From a virus, in IMG/VR virus record IMGVR_UViG_3300045988_147626, positions 1 through 45,319 of that record: DNA of 45,319 bases. One strand, written 5' to 3'. Shown here in pieces: positions 4,095-18,382 of this stretch. The notes below the pieces were generated by a model that saw only the letters and a list, made by a program, of their open reading frames with translations, had not been told where the DNA came from and did not search any database. The position numbers and the translations under genes were made by a program. How positions within the stretch are numbered: position 1 is the first letter of the stretch; each line of letters begins with the position of its first letter.

Positions 4095-6992
4095 ATGGCG
4101 GACGGAACCATAGTAATTGATACGGCGATCCGGAAAGATGGGCTTGATGCCGGAATTAATGAGATAGAACAGGCACTGGACGGCGCATCGGCGCAGTTTC
4201 ATGATTATGGGGATTCTGTTCAGAAGTTCATCGATGACTATATGAACGGAGCCGGACAGGCATCTCGGTACACGAACGAATTAAAGCAGCAGGTTGAATC
4301 TTTAAAAAAACAGTTAAAGGATCTGGAAGATAATGGAAAATGGTTTGGCGATGAAGATTACAATAGTACATTCCTAAAATATCAGCAGCTCATGCAGGAA
4401 GTTAAGGAATGGAAAAGGGCTATTGTCAATCCAGAGTCAGATGTCAAACTGTTTGACTCGAGCACCCTGGAAGGTCAGATCGGGAAGCTGACCGGCGATT
4501 TGATGAAATTACGCAACAGCGGAAAGGGCTTCGGAGATGAGACGTTTGATGCGACGGCGATCGCGCTGAAACGAGCCCAGCACTCACTTGCAGATTATCA
4601 AAAAGAACTGTTTAAGACAGATGAGCAGCGGCAGAAAGAGGCAGAAACAGCCAGGAAGCAGGAAGAAGCGCAGCGGCGCGTGAATGAGAGGCTGGAGGAA
4701 GCGCGGCAAAAGGAAGCCGCCGCCGCTCAGGAAGCTGCCCGGCTTTCGGCGATCGGTGAGAATGCTAAAATTTCGAATCGACGCATCGTGTCCCTCAATA
4801 AGGAACTGGCTGCCCTGGAGGCACGACAAAAGGAACTGTCAAAAGCGGGCGTAGGGCCGGGAAACAAAGAATATGACAGCAACGCCCGGAAAATAAGGAA
4901 GCTTAGGGAAGAACTGAGCCGTTACCAGAGCGGCGCAAAGGCATCTGAAAAGCAGACTAAGAAACTGAATAAATCCTTGGATAATACCAAGAAATCGGCG
5001 GGTGGCGCCCGGATGAGCATGAAACGGATGTTGATGATGTCTCTGATGTTTTCAACGGTGTTCCGTGCACTATCTGCAGTTGCTTCGGGGTTAAAGTCCG
5101 GTACGGATAACCTGGCGCAGTATTCGGATGATACAAATCGGGCGCTCTCTATGCTGGTGTCTGCCCTGACCCAGTTGAAAAACAGTTTTGCAACTGCATT
5201 TTCTCCGGCGATCGAGTATGCGGCACCGGCACTGACAAAAATGATTTCACTTTTGTCGGAAGCGGTTACGTGGACGGCACAGTTGGCGGCTGCTTTGACG
5301 GGCAAGGACACATATACGCGGGCAACTAAGGTAGAAGAGGATTACGGCGCCGCCCTGAAGGAGAGCAACCAACAGTTAAAGGATAAGGAGAAACTGAATA
5401 AAAAGCTGCTGTTTAGCTTTGATGAACTGATACAAGCGCAGAAGAACAGCAGTGATACAAAAGATTATGTCGGACCAACACCGGATCAGATGTTTAAAAC
5501 GGAGGAAGTTCCGAATGAAATGAAGGATCTGGCTGCGGATATAAAAAAGACATTCTCTGATTTGTTTGACCCGCTGAAAGAGTCGTGGAAAGAAAATGGT
5601 CCGGAAGTGACGGAGGCTGTTAAAGCGGCTTTTACGGCGATGAAGCAGCTGGCGGGGGATGTCGGGGCTTCCTTTATGCAGGTCTGGAATATGGAAGGAT
5701 ATGGGAAACGTATCACGGATGATCTGCTGATTACGGTTGCCAACCTGGCATGGACGGTCGCTAATCTGGCTACACAGTTGGATGCAGCATGGGTGGCAGG
5801 CGATACCGGCACAAACATCATGCGGCATTTGGGAGATATCATTTTAGAAATCACAGGCTTTTTCCGTGATGCATCGCAGAGTATGAAAGACTGGTCGGCA
5901 GATTTGGACTTTTCTCCGTTACTTACCAGTTTTGATGCAGTTTTTGCGGCACTGGGACCGGTGGTAGGAGACATTGGCGACGCGTTGCTGTGGTTATTGA
6001 ATAAATGCCTTCTCCCGTTGGCAAAATGGGGGCTTGAATCAGGGCTTCCGGCGGTATTTGACCTGATAGCGGCGGCGCTGACGGCATTACATAGTGTGCT
6101 CATGGCAGCAGAACCGACATTCGACTGGATGTGGAATGATTTCTTCCAGCCGATTGGGCAATGGACAGGTGAGTTAATCATCGGAGCACTCCAGAAGCTT
6201 ACGCAGGCGCTTTTGAGGTTTTCAGACTGGGCATCTCAGCATAAGAGTACGATTCAAGCGCTTACGGAGGTTGTAATCATGTTCTTTGCGGCATGGGCGG
6301 TCACAACGCTGGTTTCTCATGTTGGATTGATGATCGCGAATCTTGGGAAGCTGATTGGCGTTCTGGCAACGACCAATATCAAATTCTTGGCGATTGTGAC
6401 GGTTCTGACAGCAGTTGCAGGGCTGGCAATGAAAGTGGCTCAGGCGTGGACAAAAATGACACCAGGAGAGCGGCTGGCGACGAAGATCATCGCGGTAGCT
6501 GGTGCGATTGCATTGGTGGTAGCGGCGATCGGAGCGTTGACCTCCAATTATGTGATGCTTGGTGTGGCGATGGCGGTTGCGGGAATCGCAGGATTGGGAA
6601 TTTCCAGTATTGTGAGCAGTGCAAATTCCAGAAGCGGAAACAGCCGACCGAATACAGCATCTGCATATCAGAATGCGAACCGGGCAGTTTCTTACGCGAG
6701 CGCACCGTTCAGGATGCCTCGTCTGGCAACTGGTACGGTGGTACCGCCGAGAGCGGGTGAGTTCGCTGCTATCTTAGGAGACAATAAACGGGAAACTGAG
6801 GTGGTATCTCCGCTTAGCACGATGAAACAGGCTTTGAAAGAGGCACTGGAGGAATCTGGGGCAATCGGCGGCGGAAGAGATATTCATATAGATTTGATAC
6901 TGAACGGGCAGAGATTTGCCAGTGCAGTATATAAGGCGAACAATCAGGAAAGACAGCGTGTAGGAGTAAGGATGGTGCAACAGAATGCCTAA
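4095..6992 (+). CDS. Tail tape measure protein (965 aa)
   Basis: Longest ORF. N-terminal coiled coil, multiple hydrophobic segments in the C-terminal part, canonical position. Confidence 0.9.
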   Translation: MADGTIVIDTAIRKDGLDAGINEIEQALDGASAQFHDYGDSVQKFIDDYMNGAGQASRYTNELKQQVESLKKQLKDLEDNGKWFGDEDYNSTFLKYQQLMQEVKEWKRAIVNPESDVKLFDSSTLEGQIGKLTGDLMKLRNSGKGFGDETFDATAIALKRAQHSLADYQKELFKTDEQRQKEAETARKQEEAQRRVNERLEEARQKEAAAAQEAARLSAIGENAKISNRRIVSLNKELAALEARQKELSKAGVGPGNKEYDSNARKIRKLREELSRYQSGAKASEKQTKKLNKSLDNTKKSAGGARMSMKRMLMMSLMFSTVFRALSAVASGLKSGTDNLAQYSDDTNRALSMLVSALTQLKNSFATAFSPAIEYAAPALTKMISLLSEAVTWTAQLAAALTGKDTYTRATKVEEDYGAALKESNQQLKDKEKLNKKLLFSFDELIQAQKNSSDTKDYVGPTPDQMFKTEEVPNEMKDLAADIKKTFSDLFDPLKESWKENGPEVTEAVKAAFTAMKQLAGDVGASFMQVWNMEGYGKRITDDLLITVANLAWTVANLATQLDAAWVAGDTGTNIMRHLGDIILEITGFFRDASQSMKDWSADLDFSPLLTSFDAVFAALGPVVGDIGDALLWLLNKCLLPLAKWGLESGLPAVFDLIAAALTALHSVLMAAEPTFDWMWNDFFQPIGQWTGELIIGALQKLTQALLRFSDWASQHKSTIQALTEVVIMFFAAWAVTTLVSHVGLMIANLGKLIGVLATTNIKFLAIVTVLTAVAGLAMKVAQAWTKMTPGERLATKIIAVAGAIALVVAAIGALTSNYVMLGVAMAVAGIAGLGISSIVSSANSRSGNSRPNTASAYQNANRAVSYASAPFRMPRLATGTVVPPRAGEFAAILGDNKRETEVVSPLSTMKQALKEALEESGAIGGGRDIHIDLILNGQRFASAVYKANNQERQRVGVRMVQQNA

Positions 6993-7392: not shown

Positions 7393-9146
7393 TGGGAGAA
7401 GGACTGAAGATTGTATATGACGATGTGGCGCCATATGCGAAAGAAAATAGCACTCCGCAAATTGTAAAAGCAGGATTGCGCCCTCATAAAGGACTTTTCC
7501 CGCAAGCGGGGTTGACGCCGGCAGCGACAACCGTAGAACGAGAGTTCTTGGATCTACGCCGGGATGATTTGACCTACCCCGGTTATGCGCTTTGTTATCC
7601 TGGCTTTTCTCTGCTGGATGGAAACTATATCAATATGCCAGCTCTGGCGGATGATTACGGATATATTTCGGATGAGTGGTCGGATGCGGACGGTAATTTT
7701 GGATGGAGATATAGCAGAAAAGGGCTCACACCTCAAAAAGGGCTGTACCCGCGAACATTTCTATACCCAGCACCTGGCGGAAGTACCTGGATGGATATGC
7801 CAGCACTGACGATCAGTTTCAACGGGAAGTTTTCAAGTGTAGGTCTTCTTCTTACGTTCAATTTGCTGTCGGGAGATTATGCGCGGAAGCTCAATATTAA
7901 ATGGTATGCAGATGATACTCTGCTTTCAAATAAGGATTTTGAGCCGGACAGTGCGAGATATTTCTGTAGCAATTATGTGCTACGGTACAACAAGATTGTA
8001 CTGACATTCCAAAGTACATCAAAACCATACCGCCCGGTATTCCTTATCCGCATTGATTACGGAATCTATCGTGATTTCCTTTCAGATGAGTTGCTTGAAA
8101 CGGATTGCTTGCAGGAGATCAATGCGATATCGGAGAGCATCAGCATTAATACGTTGTCGTTTACTGTTCGGGCAAAGAATAATATTCCGTTCGACCTACA
8201 GAAGAAGCAGAGATTGGGATTGTACTTCGACGGGCGTTTGCTGGGAAATTTTTACTTAAAGAGCGGCGCCAGAAAGAATCGAGTAGATTATTATATGGAC
8301 ACGCACGATGCATTGGGAATCTTGGATGGCAATGAATATCATGGAGGGATTTACTCGGCTGTGAAAGTAGATACGGTACTGCATGAAATATTTGCCGGGG
8401 AAGATTTTGGATATACATTGGATGAGTCCTATAAGGATGTTACGCTGACCGGGTATATTCCGTATACGAGCAAGCGAAATGCGCTGGTGCAGGTGGCGTT
8501 TGCCATCGGGGCGATCGTAGATACATCTTACGGAGATTGTGTGCGGATTTATCCGCAGTCGCAGGAAATAACGGGAACTTTTGATAATTCGAACACGTTT
8601 GATGGATTGACCCTGGAGCATAGCGACATAGTAACCGGAATCCGGCTGACCGTTCACAGCTATGCGGAGACGGATGAGGAGGAAGAGCTATACAAGGAAG
8701 CGCTGAATGGAACCGCGGAGATTGTATTTTCGGAACCGCATCATAGCCTCTCAATCCTCGGCGGCGCTCTGGAAGAGAGTGGAGCCAATTATGCGATCAT
8801 AACAGGAACAGGAGCCGTTATTACACTGACTGGAAAAAAATACGGTCATTCGACATCCCAGTTATCGAAAGATAATCCGGATATTATTTACAACAAAAAT
8901 ATTAAAGAGGTAACGGATGCGACTCTCATAAATCCAGAAAATGGACCGGCGGCACTGGAACGCATTTATGAATATTACCAGCGGGCAGAGAGCGTTGTTG
9001 GCGATGTGCTTCTGGAAGAGGACAAGCAGTTGGGACAGAAAGTGCAGATTGACACCGGCTACGACGGCATCCGCACAGGAGTAATAGAAAGCATTGATCC
9101 GAGTTTTGCAACAGGAATAAGAGCGAGGATAAGCATACATGAGTGA
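7392..9146 (+). CDS. Tail-associated / baseplate structural protein (584 aa)
   Basis: ATG at 7392 follows AAAAGGAGA and overlaps the upstream stop. Large ORF after the Dit-like gene. Repeated KGL(F/Y)P motifs near the N-terminus. Confidence 0.6.
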   Translation: MGEGLKIVYDDVAPYAKENSTPQIVKAGLRPHKGLFPQAGLTPAATTVEREFLDLRRDDLTYPGYALCYPGFSLLDGNYINMPALADDYGYISDEWSDADGNFGWRYSRKGLTPQKGLYPRTFLYPAPGGSTWMDMPALTISFNGKFSSVGLLLTFNLLSGDYARKLNIKWYADDTLLSNKDFEPDSARYFCSNYVLRYNKIVLTFQSTSKPYRPVFLIRIDYGIYRDFLSDELLETDCLQEINAISESISINTLSFTVRAKNNIPFDLQKKQRLGLYFDGRLLGNFYLKSGARKNRVDYYMDTHDALGILDGNEYHGGIYSAVKVDTVLHEIFAGEDFGYTLDESYKDVTLTGYIPYTSKRNALVQVAFAIGAIVDTSYGDCVRIYPQSQEITGTFDNSNTFDGLTLEHSDIVTGIRLTVHSYAETDEEEELYKEALNGTAEIVFSEPHHSLSILGGALEESGANYAIITGTGAVITLTGKKYGHSTSQLSKDNPDIIYNKNIKEVTDATLINPENGPAALERIYEYYQRAESVVGDVLLEEDKQLGQKVQIDTGYDGIRTGVIESIDPSFATGIRARISIHE

Positions 9147-11469: not shown

Positions 11470-12084
11470 ATGGGAATGAATGATAAACACAATTACGATC
11501 CAACAAAATGGGTAGACAATAGCGAACCGGATATTGATGCAGAACATTTGAATAAAATTGAATCAGCGCTACAAGAATACGGTGTCAGCATTGATGAGCT
11601 GGCGGCGGCAGGGGGTACCGCCGCGAAAGTCAAGACTACCGATACATACGGTTTGGTAGTGAGTGCCTTGGGGGAGAGTACAGCGCAAGTGCTGATCGAT
11701 GCGATCGCCAATAAGGTTGTGAATGAGCTTATCAATAAAAATAAGATTGTAAACAACCTTCTGGCGACGGATGCCTCCACCGTTCTGGCGGGAACGCAGG
11801 GCACGGCGCTGGATAAAAGGTTGGTGGCGGCGGAGAAAGCGGTTACTCAGTTAAATAGTGATATTAAAATTAAATTTTATGGCAAAGTTACAGATTTATC
11901 AGTAATAAAAACACTTTGTCAACAAGAATATGAATGTTGGGTTGGCTATATTGATTGGAAGAATACTGAAATCTTGCCCTCTACTGGTGGTACTATGCTT
12001 TGGTTTGCATTTGATTGGATAGTATGTGGGTTATGTTATGGAAAGATGTTTTATTTAAATATGGATACTCTTACATGGTCTTAA
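11470..12084 (+). CDS. Tail fibre protein: constant N-terminal part plus the currently expressed variable C-terminal cassette
   Basis: GGAGA RBS. The N-terminal W..NSEPDIDAEHLNKIE motif is fibre-like. The recombination core TTAAATAGTGA lies at codons 128-131, and composition turns AT-rich after 11861. Confidence 0.75.
   Translation: MGMNDKHNYDPTKWVDNSEPDIDAEHLNKIESALQEYGVSIDELAAAGGTAAKVKTTDTYGLVVSALGESTAQVLIDAIANKVVNELINKNKIVNNLLATDASTVLAGTQGTALDKRLVAAEKAVTQLNSDIKIKFYGKVTDLSVIKTLCQQEYECWVGYIDWKNTEILPSTGGTMLWFAFDWIVCGLCYGKMFYLNMDTLTWS
11851..11861 (+). repeat. Inversion core site S0 (TTAAATAGTGA) inside the fibre gene
   Basis: Direct reading. Its reverse complement occurs four times at 13.6-14.7 kb. 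Confidence 0.8.
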
Positions 12085-12189
12085 GTTTAAATATTCTCAT
12101 CTATTATTAAATAACAATTTCATAAAGAAAATTTTACAGAATCTCTCCGTTTTGGTACCTTAAAAGTGTCAGAAAGGAGAAATTTTTAT

Positions 12190-13212
12190 ATGGTAGAAGA
12201 GTTATTGATGAATGTGGTAAATGCAATGAGTAATTGCTTGGATGAAGAGCAGTTGGACAAGCTGCAGAATGTCCTGTACATCAATTTCCACGATGTGAGA
12301 GTAGTAGAAGAGAAGAATGAGCTCCAGGCGACCGGCACCGACAGCGACACCGCAAAGATGCGGTTATTTGTGGCATCTAAAAAAGTGTCAGGTAGGCAAG
12401 ACAATACATTGGCTCAGTACATCAGGGAGATCACTAATTGCCGTAACGCGCTGCGAAAGAATATTGAGGATATCACTACGATGGATCTACGCTGGTACTT
12501 TGGAATGCTCCGGGAGCGGAACAAAATCAGTATGGTTACGCTGCAGGGGCGGATGCGATATCTAAACAGCTTCTGGACCTTTCTACAAAAAGAAAATCTT
12601 GTAAAGGACAACCCAGTGGCGCGAATCGAGTCACTCCGGATCGAAAGCACCATCAAAAAAGCGTTTTCGGCACAGGAACTGGAAGCCCTCCGGATCGCCT
12701 GTGAGCGTCCGCGGGATAGAGCACTGATAGAGTTTTTGTATGCGACGGGAGTGCGTGTGTCCGAGCTATGCAGCTTAAGTGTAGGAGATATAGATTTATA
12801 CAAACAGGAGTTCAAAGTTATGGGTAAGGGCCGCAAGGAGAGGAGATTATACGTCTCAGACGTAGCTTGCTTTCATCTCTACCGATATCTGAGGTGGAGA
12901 ATGGCAAAAGAGGGGCTGACGATGGAAGAATTGGCACAGAAACCGCTTTTTGTATCTGCGAAGAAGCCATATAGCCGCATGACAGTGGCGGGAGTGCAGT
13001 ATCTAGTGAAAACTTTAGGAAAGAAAGCGGGAGTTGGAAATGTGCATCCGCATCGATTCCGCCGAACCTTTGCGACGGATCTGCTCAACCGAGGAATGCG
13101 GATCGAGGAGGTCATGGTGCTGATGGGGCATACAAAGATAGAGACCACATTAATTTACTGCAATATCAAGCAGGATAACGTGAGAGAGTCTTATCGTAAA
13201 TATGCAGCGTAG
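12190..13212 (+). CDS. Tyrosine site-specific recombinase (XerC/XerD/Rci-like), candidate shufflon invertase
   Basis: Catalytic signature ATGVRVSEL (R), HPHRFRRTF (H-x-x-R) and MGHTKIETTLIY (H...Y). ATG at 12190 follows AAAGGAGA, whereas the track start 12166 is a GTG upstream of the RBS. Confidence 0.9.
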   Translation: MVEELLMNVVNAMSNCLDEEQLDKLQNVLYINFHDVRVVEEKNELQATGTDSDTAKMRLFVASKKVSGRQDNTLAQYIREITNCRNALRKNIEDITTMDLRWYFGMLRERNKISMVTLQGRMRYLNSFWTFLQKENLVKDNPVARIESLRIESTIKKAFSAQELEALRIACERPRDRALIEFLYATGVRVSELCSLSVGDIDLYKQEFKVMGKGRKERRLYVSDVACFHLYRYLRWRMAKEGLTMEELAQKPLFVSAKKPYSRMTVAGVQYLVKTLGKKAGVGNVHPHRFRRTFATDLLNRGMRIEEVMVLMGHTKIETTLIYCNIKQDNVRESYRKYAA

Positions 13213-13355
13213 ATAGGAGAGAAGAGCACCTTTTTAGGTCGGCAGAAATGGCGGCTTTTTTGTTGTACGCAAAAATAGGAGATAGGAGAGGGTAGGGGAA
13301 TAAGTGATGGACGGTGGCAAAAATAGAGTAAGTTTTTCGCTATTAAATTGTTATT

Positions 13356-13623
13356 TCAAGATGCCGTATATATGTCAGTTAAAACGGTTCCATTGTGTCG
13401 GTAAACTTTGATTGAGCCCCAGGAGTTGATCAGCAAAATACTTCCTTTGGCATTATCGTATTTATTGATAAGCCCGATCCATGCCTCGGCAGAATTTCGG
13501 TACAGAAGTGCAGCTACACCAGTTTTAAAAGTATTCCAATTAGCATACATGTCATTTTTTATGCCGTTACTGTCGTTGGCACTGACAGTATGAAGAGCAT
13601 TGGTAAATAAGGCCTCACTATTT
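13356..13623 (-). other. Silent fibre C-terminal cassette 1 with site S1 (core 13615..13623)
   Basis: The minus strand reads AAT AGT GAG and stays open for 88 codons to TGA at 13356..13358. There is no RBS or start at the site. Confidence 0.7.
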
Positions 13624-13998
13624 CACTTAATTTTAATCGCCCATATTTCGTATTGAATCGTGATAGGCGAATCAGCCCAGCAGAAAAAATATAAAGTGGT
13701 TTCCTTGGAAAACCCCATAGCAAAGGTATTATTACATGAACGATATTCAGTCACATCATTACGTGCTGTGGTTGTGGGAATGTTTAAGGCTTTTTCATAT
13801 AAAGGTAGATCTTGTTTGAAGGTATCTATTCTCGTATCAAGATATATGCTGTTTGAGCAGTTTACATCAGAGCGCTGCCCTATGATGTATGTGCCAGCAG
13901 GAAGCGTTATTGATTTTGTTCCTCGAGTCCATGAATTTATGACAGAAACATTATATGTTTCCAATGAGCTCCAATACTGTTTTCCCAGGTCACTATTT
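13623..13998 (-). other. Silent fibre C-terminal cassette 2 with site S2 (core 13990..13998)
   Basis: The minus strand reads TTA AAT AGT GAC and stays open for 124 codons. Its TGA stop (13623..13625) abuts site S1. Confidence 0.7.
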
Positions 13999-14021
13999 AA
14001 TGGGGACAACCCTTTGGCATA

Positions 14022-14382
14022 TTATCCTATTTTTAAATACGTAACTGCTTTTAAAGCCAAATTATTAAATATCTGTGAACTACCTTTGAACAAGATACGA
14101 AACGTTACGGTTCCGGTATTCGAATCGAACGAAGCCTGAATTGTGCTTTTCCAATAAGGATCATCCGTAAATGTGTTTGCCACTGTCGTTCCATATGTGC
14201 GACCATTGCCTGTTAAGATAAGTATGTCGTATACTGCAGATTCAAAAGCCAAACTTACCATATTTGCGCCGATTAAACTATTGTGCTGATATTTATAGTC
14301 CGTATTTATTGCGCTTGGAATTACATTTATCCATAGTGTTTTAGGTGTGGCATTGTTCCAGCGGGCAGAGGTCTCACTATTT
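14022..14382 (-). other. Silent fibre C-terminal cassette 3 with site S3 (core 14374..14382)
   Basis: The minus strand reads TTA AAT AGT GAG and stays open for 119 codons. This frame runs into track ORF 14022..14261. Confidence 0.7.
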
Positions 14383-14714
14383 AACTTGCTACAAGTCTAT
14401 TCCAGGATTCCCAAGTGGTCGGGGTGTAGTTTATGTTTCTTCGAAAATAAATAGCTTTATCACTCGAATCAGTTGAAATGGCAAATTGCGTGATCCAAGC
14501 GGTCGAACTATTTCCAAAGTCGTTGGATGTGTTAAAGGTTATTATGATCCAATAGCCCTCAAACGGAAGATTTAAACCTGTTTTGCCTGTTTTGTAGATT
14601 CCACTCGCCAACATGTAATTAGCATTAGTGTAATATTGATATCTCGATTGAAAAGCAGCGCAAAAGCTATTTTCGCTACCACTTGCTATAAGGTGACTGG
14701 AGGCTTCACTATTT
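14381..14714 (-). other. Silent fibre C-terminal cassette 4 with site S4 (core 14706..14714)
   Basis: The minus strand reads CAA AAT AGT GAA and stays open for 110 codons. Its TAA stop (14381..14383) lies inside site S3. Confidence 0.7.
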
Positions 14715-16219: not shown

Positions 16220-17062
16220 ATGAGAGATATTACATTATGCCATCCGCGTCTCCAGACCCTGACTGCGCAGCTCGTCGATAAGTGTGCCGGTGCAGGTTTG
16301 CCGATTAAAATCGGGGAATCTTTCCGGAGCGTCGCCGAACAGGACGCTCTGTATGCACAAGGACGCACGCAGCCGGGCAGTATTGTCACGAATGCAAAAG
16401 GCAGCAGCTACAGCAGTCAGCACCAGTGGGGCATCGCAGCGGATTTTTACCGCGCTGACGGAAAAGGTGCATACAACGAAGCAGGAGATTATTTCAATCG
16501 GGTTGGAGCGATCGCCAAGCAGCTGGGGCTTGCATGGGGAGGCGATTGGAAAAGCATCGTAGACAAGCCACACGTATATTTGCCGGATTGGGGCAGCGGT
16601 ACTGGGATTTTGAAACAGAAATATGGGACATTTGAGGCGTTTAAAAAGACCTGGGCGGTGGAGAACAGCACGGTACCAGAACAGTCAAAAATGGTGATCG
16701 CCGATCTTAAAGAAATTAAGAGCGGCATACGCGGGTTGAGAGTCACTGCGTCCTCACTTATCATACGAACAACTCCAAACGGTACAGACACAGGCAAGCG
16801 CTACACCAAGGATCAGCGTGTGCAACCAATTAATAAATGCTTTGCCGACGGCGATCCGTGGATCCAGACCGCAGACGGCTGGATATCCGGTAAATACCTT
16901 GAGGGCTGGCTTTTACAGGATGGGAGCTGGTGGTATCTACTGAGTGGTTACACCTACCACCATGATACGGTCTACTTGATTGACGGACAGGCGTATGCGT
17001 TTGATTCGGATGGCTGGATGATTACCGCAGATCGGATAGCAGAGGACGGACACATACGATAA
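16220..17062 (+). CDS. Endolysin: M15 (VanY-like) peptidase with SH3b-like and cell-wall-binding repeat C-terminus
   Basis: Motifs ESFRSVAEQDALYAQGRT, SQHQWGIAADF and WGGDW. C-terminal GSWWYL...DGQAYAFDSDGWM repeats. ATG at 16220 follows AGGAG. Confidence 0.85.
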   Translation: MRDITLCHPRLQTLTAQLVDKCAGAGLPIKIGESFRSVAEQDALYAQGRTQPGSIVTNAKGSSYSSQHQWGIAADFYRADGKGAYNEAGDYFNRVGAIAKQLGLAWGGDWKSIVDKPHVYLPDWGSGTGILKQKYGTFEAFKKTWAVENSTVPEQSKMVIADLKEIKSGIRGLRVTASSLIIRTTPNGTDTGKRYTKDQRVQPINKCFADGDPWIQTADGWISGKYLEGWLLQDGSWWYLLSGYTYHHDTVYLIDGQAYAFDSDGWMITADRIAEDGHIR

Positions 17063-17095
17063 AATATGATGAAAAACACAATATAAGCGCATAAT

Positions 17096-17142
17096 AAGGG
17101 GCTGTCATTCCTTGAAAATAAAGGAAAAACAGCCCCTTTTTT
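17096..17142 (+). terminator. Rho-independent terminator after the endolysin gene
   Basis: AAGGGGCTGT (17096..17105) pairs with ACAGCCCCTT (17129..17138), followed by a T run. Confidence 0.8.
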
Positions 17143-17361
17143 CGTGTGATATTTCGTGTGATATTTACCCCGAAAAAGGGGTTCAAAATGCCGAAAATGG
17201 CATTCGCAAAGAAGTTCCTTAAAACACCGAGAACCCTTGTAAATAAAGGAAAAATCCAATATTTACAAGGGCTCCTGCGAGTGGACCAGACGGGAGTTGA
17301 ACCCGCCCAAAACCCTTGATTTTAAAGGTTCTTTAAGCATCGTGTGATATTTCGTGTGATA
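17142..17361. other. Candidate attP: tRNA 3-prime-like core flanked by arm-type repeats
   Basis: On the minus strand, 17282..17306 reads GCGGGTTCAACTCCCGTCTGGTCCA (T-arm plus acceptor 3-prime strand). The 10-mer TCGTGTGATA occurs four times (17142, 17154, 17340, 17352). A 12-bp inverted repeat lies at 17234..17245 / 17260..17271. Confidence 0.55.
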
Positions 17362-18382
17362 CTTGCTCAAAATGCTTATTGATAAGGTCATTTTGTTTTA
17401 CAGACTCATTTGAGATAGCATTTCGGTAAACAGTTTTCATCACACCGTCAGTGCTCCAGCCGCCGCGTTGCAGAATATACTGATCCGGAACACCAATGGC
17501 GTGCATGATACTTGCCGAGTAGTGCCGCAGATCATGAAAGCGGAAATCTGGAAGCCCGGCTTTCGCCAACGCCCGCTTGAAACGGTGTGAGATGGTATCA
17601 GGGGTGGACGAAAACAAATGCCCTTTGATACCGGATAGTTTTGCGATTACCGGATCCGGAAGCGGTATAGTGCGATAGGAGGCATAGGTTTTAGGAACCT
17701 TTGTGTACCATACGTTATCCTTGCCCCGGACATAACTCTTTGTAATGGAGACCATGTTGCCTGTAATGTCTTTGTCAGTAAGAGCGCAGAGCTCGCTGCG
17801 GCGTAATGGCCCGAAAGCTCCCAACAGTACAGCACGCTCCAATTCTGGATCATCTTGAATGCTATCCAGCAATTTTTTTATGTCAGCATCAGAAGGACAA
17901 TACAGTTCAGCCTTCTTTTTGGCTGGCAGCTGGATCTTAAAATGTTGATCCGGAGCAAACATTTCCAGGGTCGGCTTCAACAGTCCGATGATGTTATGGA
18001 CTGATTTTGGAGATAGGTCTCGGCTCATGTCGGAGATCCAGATCTGCAGCTGCTGGCTGGTTAAGTCATTGATTTTAGTTTTCCCGAATGGTCCGGAAAA
18101 ACGGGTTTTATAAATGGATTCGTATCCGCGTATGGTGGCAGGAGAAAGGACGCCGTCCTTTGCGTCGATATACCTCCGGGCAGCACTCTGGACCGTTAGA
18201 TTGGAGGCGGCCTCTTGCTCGTATTTGCGATGTAGCTGCCATTCGCTTCGCAGTGCTTTAGCTTCTGCCAGCGTCGGAGCCGTAAAACTGCGGTAGTGCT
18301 TTTTGCCAGCATCGTCTGTGTAATCATATGCCTGGATCCGGACAGAGCCGGACGGCAGCAAGTGCTTTTGTTTTTTTGCCAT
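17333..18382 (-). CDS. int: Tyrosine integrase (phage integrase family with N-terminal arm-binding domain)
   Basis: 349 aa. C-terminal RFHDLRHYSAS and GGW...MKTVY catalytic motifs. Located next to the attP-like region. Confidence 0.92.
   Translation of the reverse strand: MAKKQKHLLPSGSVRIQAYDYTDDAGKKHYRSFTAPTLAEAKALRSEWQLHRKYEQEAASNLTVQSAARRYIDAKDGVLSPATIRGYESIYKTRFSGPFGKTKINDLTSQQLQIWISDMSRDLSPKSVHNIIGLLKPTLEMFAPDQHFKIQLPAKKKAELYCPSDADIKKLLDSIQDDPELERAVLLGAFGPLRRSELCALTDKDITGNMVSITKSYVRGKDNVWYTKVPKTYASYRTIPLPDPVIAKLSGIKGHLFSSTPDTISHRFKRALAKAGLPDFRFHDLRHYSASIMHAIGVPDQYILQRGGWSTDGVMKTVYRNAISNESVKQNDLINKHFEQVSHEISHDA

Follow-up and report, generated by a model that had tools for sequence, protein, structure and literature searches.

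Why should a tyrosine recombinase gene lie among inverted repeats beside a phage tail-fibre gene, inside the DNA that these repeats would invert? The question is raised by the virus record IMGVR_UViG_3300045988_147626, analyzed here over its full length of 45,319 nt (the window), in which the gene occupies positions 12190–13212 on the + strand. The locus is very probably a multiple-inversion switch (shufflon) for the C-terminus of the tail fibre of a temperate gut-Lachnospiraceae phage, with the gene of a Xer-like recombinase at its pivot and two nested classes of recombination sites.

The reading frame of this presumed invertase opens with ATG at 12190, ends with a stop codon at 13212 and encodes 340 residues. 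Homologues in a large protein collection are almost all 340 residues long, which identifies this ATG, and not the GTG at 12166, as the start. The product matches the Pfam profile Phage_integrase (PF00589) at 2.7e-35. A weak SAM-like core-binding domain and the catalytic domain are the only domains that Pfam detects in it, and no serine-recombinase/resolvase domain was found. The closest solved structure is that of XerD (1a0p, 5.7e-25), and in the alignment with it Arg189, Lys213, His288, Arg291, His314 and Tyr323 fall on the XerD catalytic residues. All six of these columns are invariant in 18 homologues, down to 55% identity. The catalytic hexad is thus intact, in agreement with an earlier sequence-only reading of this DNA, which had recognized the signature of a tyrosine recombinase and not of a Gin/Hin-type serine invertase.

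Profile comparisons place the protein close to the Xer recombinases. The top NCBIfam profiles are XerA (207.5 bits against a cut-off of 220), XerC (176 against 335) and XerD (175 against 330), all of them under their cut-offs, and FimB/FimE-type invertase profiles rank far lower (6e-8). On these comparisons, we describe the protein as Xer-like by fold and profile, without the status of a XerC, XerD or XerA equivalog. The setting of the gene, amid seven inverted sites in a phage fibre locus, is not that of a chromosome-dimer resolvase with a single dif-type site per replicon. The sequence-only reading had also proposed a comparison with Rci and the phage integrases; BLASTP detects no significant similarity to the Rci of R64 (E 0.11) or to the integrase of the same phage (E 0.09).

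That integrase is encoded at 17333–18382 on the – strand, outside the shufflon, and its assignment by Pfam confirms that the gene under study is a second tyrosine recombinase of this phage. Within the 17062–17333 region of the window, homology to integrated prophages ends at about 17305, 28 nt from the integrase gene and inside a sequence that resembles a tRNA 3′ end (GGGAGTTGAACCCG). The integrated prophages (L018, L020 and L027) adjoin thrS, DUF1540 and infC, and direct repeats (TCGTGTGATATTTCGTGTGATA) are found at 17142 and 17340. Since the prophage homology ends beside the integrase, the window represents an excised or circular form with attP next to this gene, and 17333–18382 is the true integrase. 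A location at the att boundary is found for this gene and not for 12190–13212.

The core of the fibre sites is the 9-mer AAATAGTGA. It occurs seven times in the window, compared to 0.63 copies expected, a number reached by no shuffle. Five of the copies cluster at the recombinase gene, and the other two lie elsewhere in the window. Within the cluster, one core is on the + strand (S0, at 11853) and four are on the – strand (S1 to S4, at 13615, 13990, 14374 and 14706). The gene is located between the lone + site and the four – sites, as the sequence-only reading had placed it.

To the left of the gene, the fibre frame (11470–12084, + strand) is divided by S0. The constant N-terminal part (11470–11852) terminates in AVTQL immediately 5′ of the core, and S0 itself (11853–11861) supplies the codons N-S-D. 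It is followed by cassette c0 (11862–12084), the C-terminus expressed in the window, which completes a fibre of 204 residues. To the right of the gene, four silent cassettes lie on the – strand. Cassette c1 (13356–13614) precedes the core of S1 (13615–13623), and c2 (13623–13989), whose stop codon overlaps S1, precedes that of S2 (13990–13998). Cassette c3 (14022–14373) is followed by the core of S3 (14374–14382), and c4 (14381–14705), whose stop codon overlaps S3, by that of S4 (14706–14714), the outer boundary of the shufflon. When the constant part is joined in silico to the minus-strand DNA below each inverted core, in-frame open fibres of 216, 252, 247 and 238 residues result for c1 to c4, respectively. 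The predicted lengths agree with those observed, as sister contigs have called fibre genes of 216, 252 and 247 residues; for c4, a similar cassette is expressed in a relative (L008).

Ten contigs that encode the identical 340-residue protein were compared with the window. Sister contigs are 99–100% identical to the window DNA and differ from it in arrangement; the arrangement of the window itself recurs in L018, L019 and L026. In L022, the constant part is joined to c2 (252 residues), and positions 11849–14000 of the window are inverted as a single block at 100% identity, with the recombinase gene included. Inversion between S0 and the S1–S4 sites therefore does turn the gene over, as had been suggested. 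The constant part is joined to c3 in L023 (247 residues) and to c1 in L024 and L025 (216 residues), and the silent cassettes of L020 stand in the order c1, c4, c3, c2. The 9-nt core, S0 in the case of the constant part, is the location of every breakpoint of the fibre rearrangements. Homologous recombination was considered as the cause of the inversions and rejected, because the shared cores are merely 9–12 nt long and the exchanges are exact. With five fibre sites, where at least three are expected of a shufflon, four expressed variants (c0, c1, c2 and c3) and permuted cassette orders in nearly identical DNA, the locus has the properties of a shufflon. We also modeled it as two cassette stacks flanking the gene, in which each inversion swaps the inner i cassettes on the left with the inner j cassettes on the right. 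Left-by-right inversions, together with the flip of the gene described below, reach 96 of the 960 conceivable arrangements in this model, and the three fully resolved arrangements that were observed are all reachable, in three to four steps.

Some sister contigs have features of their own. L021 is without c3 and has in its place, at position 2611, a hybrid site that joins the end of c4 to c2. Deletion between directly oriented sites thus seems to occur, unless the other contigs have gained c3, and inversion may not be the only reaction of the system. Two metagenome contigs, L024 and, at its right end, L027, look like mosaics of population states. On the far side of the module, L024 (9139–10865) carries a second fibre-type constant end (GGTTACTCAGTTAAATAGCGA) with collagen-repeat proteins, and here the QLNSD junction is also used by collagen-like fibres. 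A real two-fibre locus was set aside for this contig, which is probably an assembly mosaic of two phages sharing the module. In L023 (8164–9672), a large serine recombinase gene and a sigma-70 region-4 gene replace the lysis genes after a truncated c0, indicating either a different backbone or a misjoin.

A second pair of sites, unmentioned in the sequence-only reading, brackets the recombinase gene more closely. It is a 29-nt imperfect inverted repeat (12109–12137 and 13328–13356). The left inner site, on the + strand, consists of the 12-nt core AAATAACAATTT (12109–12120) followed by a conserved inner arm that extends to 12137; in the right inner site, the core lies on the – strand at 13345–13356 and the inner arm at 13328–13344. 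The 12-mer is present in two copies in the window, compared to 0.01 expected. The 1.25-kb module between the outer ends of the pair (12109–13356) is inverted relative to both neighbouring cassettes in L021, L023, L024, L025 and L027, with 99.9–100% identity. Read base by base, the junctions of L021, L023, L025 and L027 reveal an exact reciprocal exchange inside AAATAACAATTT.

Relatives have the inner pair at the same positions, and its general form, TGAAAT-NNNN-ATTTMA, is a dyad with a conserved arm of ∼21 nt on the gene side. In a lineage with 60% identity, L035 and L032 are one fibre-site inversion and one inner inversion apart. Logan contigs of ∼1.27 kb begin or stop exactly at the inner core, one of them (L124) at both ends. 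The exact window protein is present in 107 collection blocks, 65 of which have it on no contig of 2 kb or longer. Such contigs would be expected from samples in which both orientations are mixed. The inner switch is not universal, as the inner centres of L006 are mismatched and five loci (L009, L011, L012, L049 and L050) are without a recognisable left inner arm.

The two classes of sites have the AAAT half-site in common and are distinguished by the 4-nt centre. The fibre sites conform to R-T-W-AAAT-NNNN-A, with an unconserved second half (90 distinct sites), and this asymmetry recalls the sfx sites of R64. Their centres are uniform within each phage (AGTG, AGCG, GGTG, GGCG or AGTA) and variable between phages, as they would be if recombination required a match between partner sites in the exchanged region. 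The inner centre varies in the same manner. It is identical in both arms and differs between phages in 14 matched loci, which represent five types (AACA, CGTA, GAAG, CATA and CACA); a sixth type, CCGC, is found in the 60%-identity lineage, in a myovirus-type prophage. Within every phage examined, the inner centre differs from the centre of the fibre sites, and no hybrids between the two classes were seen.

The position of the gene was compared across 26 loci (the window, 17 IMG/VR relatives, four genomes and four further loci), with the recombinase set to the + strand in each. Sites to the left of the gene are + and sites to the right are –; 106 sites obey this rule and four do not. The constant part of the fibre is found on either side of the gene, and both orientations of the latter relative to the late operon are frequent. 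As a consequence of the rule, every left-by-right inversion must flip the gene, and no such inversion, of whatever kind, disturbs the rule. The enclosure of the gene by inverted sites in relatives, which the sequence-only reading had put forward for survey, thus proves to be a general property of these loci, with the gene in the pivot position. The rule is obeyed in genomes of Otoolea, Clostridium transplantifaecale, Clostridium sp. UMGS1015 (16 sites) and Blautia, all hosts belonging to the Lachnospiraceae. The module also occurs in a different phage backbone, where it adjoins Baseplate_J and Mu gp48; in the 60%-identity lineage, the junction motif ITQLNSD likewise follows the Baseplate_J and Mu gp48 genes. 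The Clostridium sp. UMGS1015 prophage (L030, NZ_URHZ01000008.1, 4644–9951) contains one left and 15 right AAATGGCGA sites, with ∼16 cassettes. The relative in Clostridium transplantifaecale Marseille-P8228 (L029), at 86% identity, is flanked by three and two sites. In a de novo survey of exact 9-mers in 77 loci, nothing rose above chance below ∼60% identity. One candidate from this range, L087 (39% identity, with one and nine repeats), was rejected as a shufflon, as its repeats form a CRISPR-like array with a period of 66–67 nt. The array comprises eight repeats (8370–8836) on a viral contig, 2.4 kb from the relative of the recombinase.

The inversions and their exact breakpoints, the rule of site orientation and the covariation of the centres are observed directly, in silico. 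The mechanism that we propose for them would operate as follows. The fibre sites, of the form R-T-W-AAAT-AGTG-A in the window, point inward, such that recombination of a left with a right site would invert the intervening DNA. Each such event would exchange the cassette on the constant part and turn the recombinase gene over. The innermost pair, TGAAAT-AACA-ATTTMA with its ∼21-nt inner arm, would invert the 1.25-kb gene module alone. Provided that the strands are exchanged within the centre, by analogy with other tyrosine recombinases, the two classes cannot cross-react, and the fibre frame would never be joined to the module. The 12190–13212 protein is in all likelihood the catalyst of the inversions. 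A single protein presumably acts on both classes of sites, and the 4-nt centre probably enforces their orthogonality.

What the inner pair does for the phage is a more tentative matter. It is conceivable, although we would not favour it strongly, that the pair forms a second-tier switch: by means of two orthogonal site classes that differ solely in the 4-nt centre, the recombinase would turn its own gene toward or away from late-operon transcription and thereby set the rate of fibre shuffling independently of the fibre expressed. A related proposal begins from the sequence-only reading, which noted that in the present state the gene is co-directional with the late tail operon and could be read through from the fibre gene, and held that it becomes antisense after any inversion between S0 and S1–S4. 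The recombinase would then have no promoter of its own, and the fibre state would set its expression. A like coupling of recombinase transcription to the inversion state has already been proposed for the BREX pglX locus (PMC9881135).

The first part of this argument holds in so far as a strict scan detects no terminator-like site between the fibre stop codon and the recombinase gene, so that read-through is possible in the present state. It need not be the sole route of expression, however, since a promoter-like element lies inside the module on the + strand (12133–12179). The element, which was read by eye, consists of TTTACA (12133–12138), a 17-nt spacer, an extended –10 sequence, TG-n-TACCTT (12153–12161), and the ribosome-binding site AAAGGAG (12173–12179). 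It overlaps the inner arm, and the pattern TTTACA-N17-TGnTACyyT with the ribosome-binding site is conserved in relatives, which suggests a promoter that belongs to the module and is overlapped by the arm. A strict consensus promoter scan reported nothing upstream of the gene, the by-eye element included. The hairpin 3′ of the gene is weak (z = –1.39), and we therefore claim no terminator after the stop codon.

The second part, by which the fibre state dictates the orientation of the gene, is contradicted by the contigs. The module flips independently: c0 is combined with a co-directional gene in the window and with an antisense gene in L021, and c1 with a co-directional gene in L025. As both orientations accompany the same fibre state, any coupling is not to the fibre state, and strict coupling of recombinase expression to it finds no support. 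Co-directional contigs do predominate in a hand tally (∼34 against 13 overall, and 15 against 4 among those with the identical protein), and in contigs that express c1 the gene has mostly returned to the co-directional orientation (L025 and five similar places). Among the IMG/VR relatives, however, the two orientations are about even (9 against 8). In the form first proposed, the coupling idea thus loses strength, and it is left solely as a possible role of the inner switch, as an on/off control of shuffling; even in this refined form, we regard it as unlikely to be correct.

Considerably less probable is that the module represents a mobile element, nested by insertion in a fibre shufflon and ending in inverted repeats, and that the fibre sites are inverted by another enzyme, either the phage integrase or a host Xer protein. 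The inverted repeats that bound the 1.25-kb module, its far better conservation relative to the surrounding cassettes and its presence in two different phage backbones would fit such an element. However, among relatives with at least 60% identity, the module is never found away from fibre-type sites, and it is always at their pivot. The AAAT half-site format is common to both classes of sites and recurs at the hsdS locus of a relative with 37% identity (see below), and the module flips in place and reciprocally, leaving neither an empty site nor a duplicated target. As for the integrase, it has no sequence relationship to the recombinase and is located at the att boundary. Least probable of all, and barely credible, is that no switching takes place and the arrangements are fixed strain differences or assembly artefacts: although the evidence comes wholly from assembled contigs, some of them evident mosaics (L024 and L027), the arrangements differ by conservative exchanges at the 9–12-nt cores alone, with 99–100% identity over kilobases, repeats of this length are far below assembler k-mers and cannot cause misjoins, and both the confinement of the exact protein to short contigs in many collection blocks and their ends exactly at the inner core are those of a mixed population.

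The multiple-inversion switch with the recombinase gene at its pivot, which we favour, has counterparts among known systems. One of the closest is Rin of Bifidobacterium prophages, the first reported phage tyrosine invertase (PMC6109161), which was compared here by description. Both are phage-encoded Xer-like tyrosine recombinases that lack an arm-binding domain and are separate from the integrase of the phage, and both systems switch the C-terminus of a receptor-binding or fibre protein among several cassettes at short asymmetric crossover sites, of ∼11 bp in the Rin system (PMC6109161). The combination that typifies Rin, an arm-less tyrosine invertase with tandem C-terminal cassettes and short sites, is thus found here as well. 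The rin gene is at the far end, outside the Rv cassettes (PMC6109161), whereas the present gene is at the pivot of opposed sites. A second pair of sites around the gene is undescribed for Rin, and the host phylum and the site sequence also differ.

By sequence, the closest annotated relative to come from the plasmid collection is a recombinase encoded amid hsdS genes, in a restriction-modification locus of Type I in Ligilactobacillus salivarius. The two proteins share 37% identity over residues 5–340, with the N-terminal 60 residues included (E 3e-72), and the neighbours of the plasmid gene are hsdS, hsdM and hsdR. The gene is bracketed by AAATACTAATTT repeats in both orientations, which have the AAAT-N4-ATTT format seen here. 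On the plasmid (L040, NZ_CP020859.1), four such repeats, at 4340, 4926, 6463 and 7034, alternate in orientation around the recombinase and hsdS. Tyrosine invertases of hsdS invertons are found inside or outside the invertons, and are internal in S. pneumoniae, E. faecalis, S. agalactiae and T. denticola (PMC7672463). The PsrA/CreX-type systems, with PsrA compared by description, therefore resemble the present locus in having a tyrosine invertase whose gene is often inside the inverton (PMC7672463). Homology to the L. salivarius recombinase extends over the full length of the protein, but the targets here are fibre C-termini, a virion protein in place of a restriction specificity subunit, and a pair of sites that flips the gene alone is undescribed in hsdS invertons.

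The R64 shufflon, compared from NC_005014, likewise undergoes multiple inversions at more than three short sites, each with one conserved and one variable side, and a tyrosine recombinase switches the C-terminus of an adhesin (PilV). Its rci gene lies beside the shufflon and outside it (NC_005014), in contrast to the pivot position in the 26 loci, and its cassettes face both ways within segments, compared to two inward-facing stacks here. The proteins are unrelated by the BLASTP comparison given above. A recombinase of an IncC plasmid (H18), taken up as a candidate Rci, turned out to be otherwise. In a BV01-like phage, the recombinase flanks the fibre shufflon (PMC13596623).

The Gin, Cin and Min systems also switch the C-termini of phage tail fibres. 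Together with Hin, these serine invertases require an enhancer and Fis. All four belong to the serine recombinase superfamily, whose resolvase domain is absent here. The hin gene does resemble the present one in its location, inside its own invertible segment (PMC5903667). The sequence-only reading had contrasted the internal gene with known systems in which the recombinase is outside the invertible DNA. This is accurate for rci of R64, but hin and the hsdS invertons cited above are internal precedents. What is known, therefore, comprises phage fibre shufflons with Xer-like tyrosine invertases, and recombinase genes inside invertible DNA; what is new is that two stacks of sites face inward on the gene, as their pivot, and that a separate pair flips the gene alone. 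We found no description in the literature of this Lachnospiraceae system or of an inner switch for the recombinase only, and a megablast search with the locus gave no match among GenBank phages.

For phage fibre shufflons with tyrosine recombinases, previous descriptions are limited to putative systems in Bifidobacterium prophages. The present family extends such shufflons to abundant phages of human-gut Lachnospiraceae, with inversion states documented by natural contigs, and provides a sequence rule for finding such systems, with all sites to the left of the gene + and all sites to the right –. In this family, nature also provides a case of a small recombinase with two classes of sites, apparently orthogonal and told apart by four bases, which may serve in tools for multiplex inversion. 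Flipping of the module accounts for the breaking of assemblies of these phages into contigs of 1.2–1.3 kb at the recombinase gene, and raises the question of whether a recombinase, by inverting the gene that encodes it, can regulate its own dose.

More distant relatives lie in other settings. In a lineage with 55% identity (P0112, L036 to L039), the recombinase gene is located amid anti-repressor-like genes (AntA, P22_AR_N and ORF6N) and a CHAP lysin, with no fibre gene adjacent. The 9-mer ACTATTTTG occurs there in two + copies to the left and two – copies to the right, and the lineage may have a different invertible target. Two cultured phages, Clostridium phage phiCp-D (L041, 4986–5963) and Terrisporobacter phage TPELB_ph1 (L042, 4878–5873), encode an annotated “integrase” with 29–31% identity between the last tail gene and the holin. 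This gene is followed in TPELB_ph1 by a small reverse reading frame, with a separate integrase encoded elsewhere. Both loci may represent the same switch in a simple form that has gone unrecognised.
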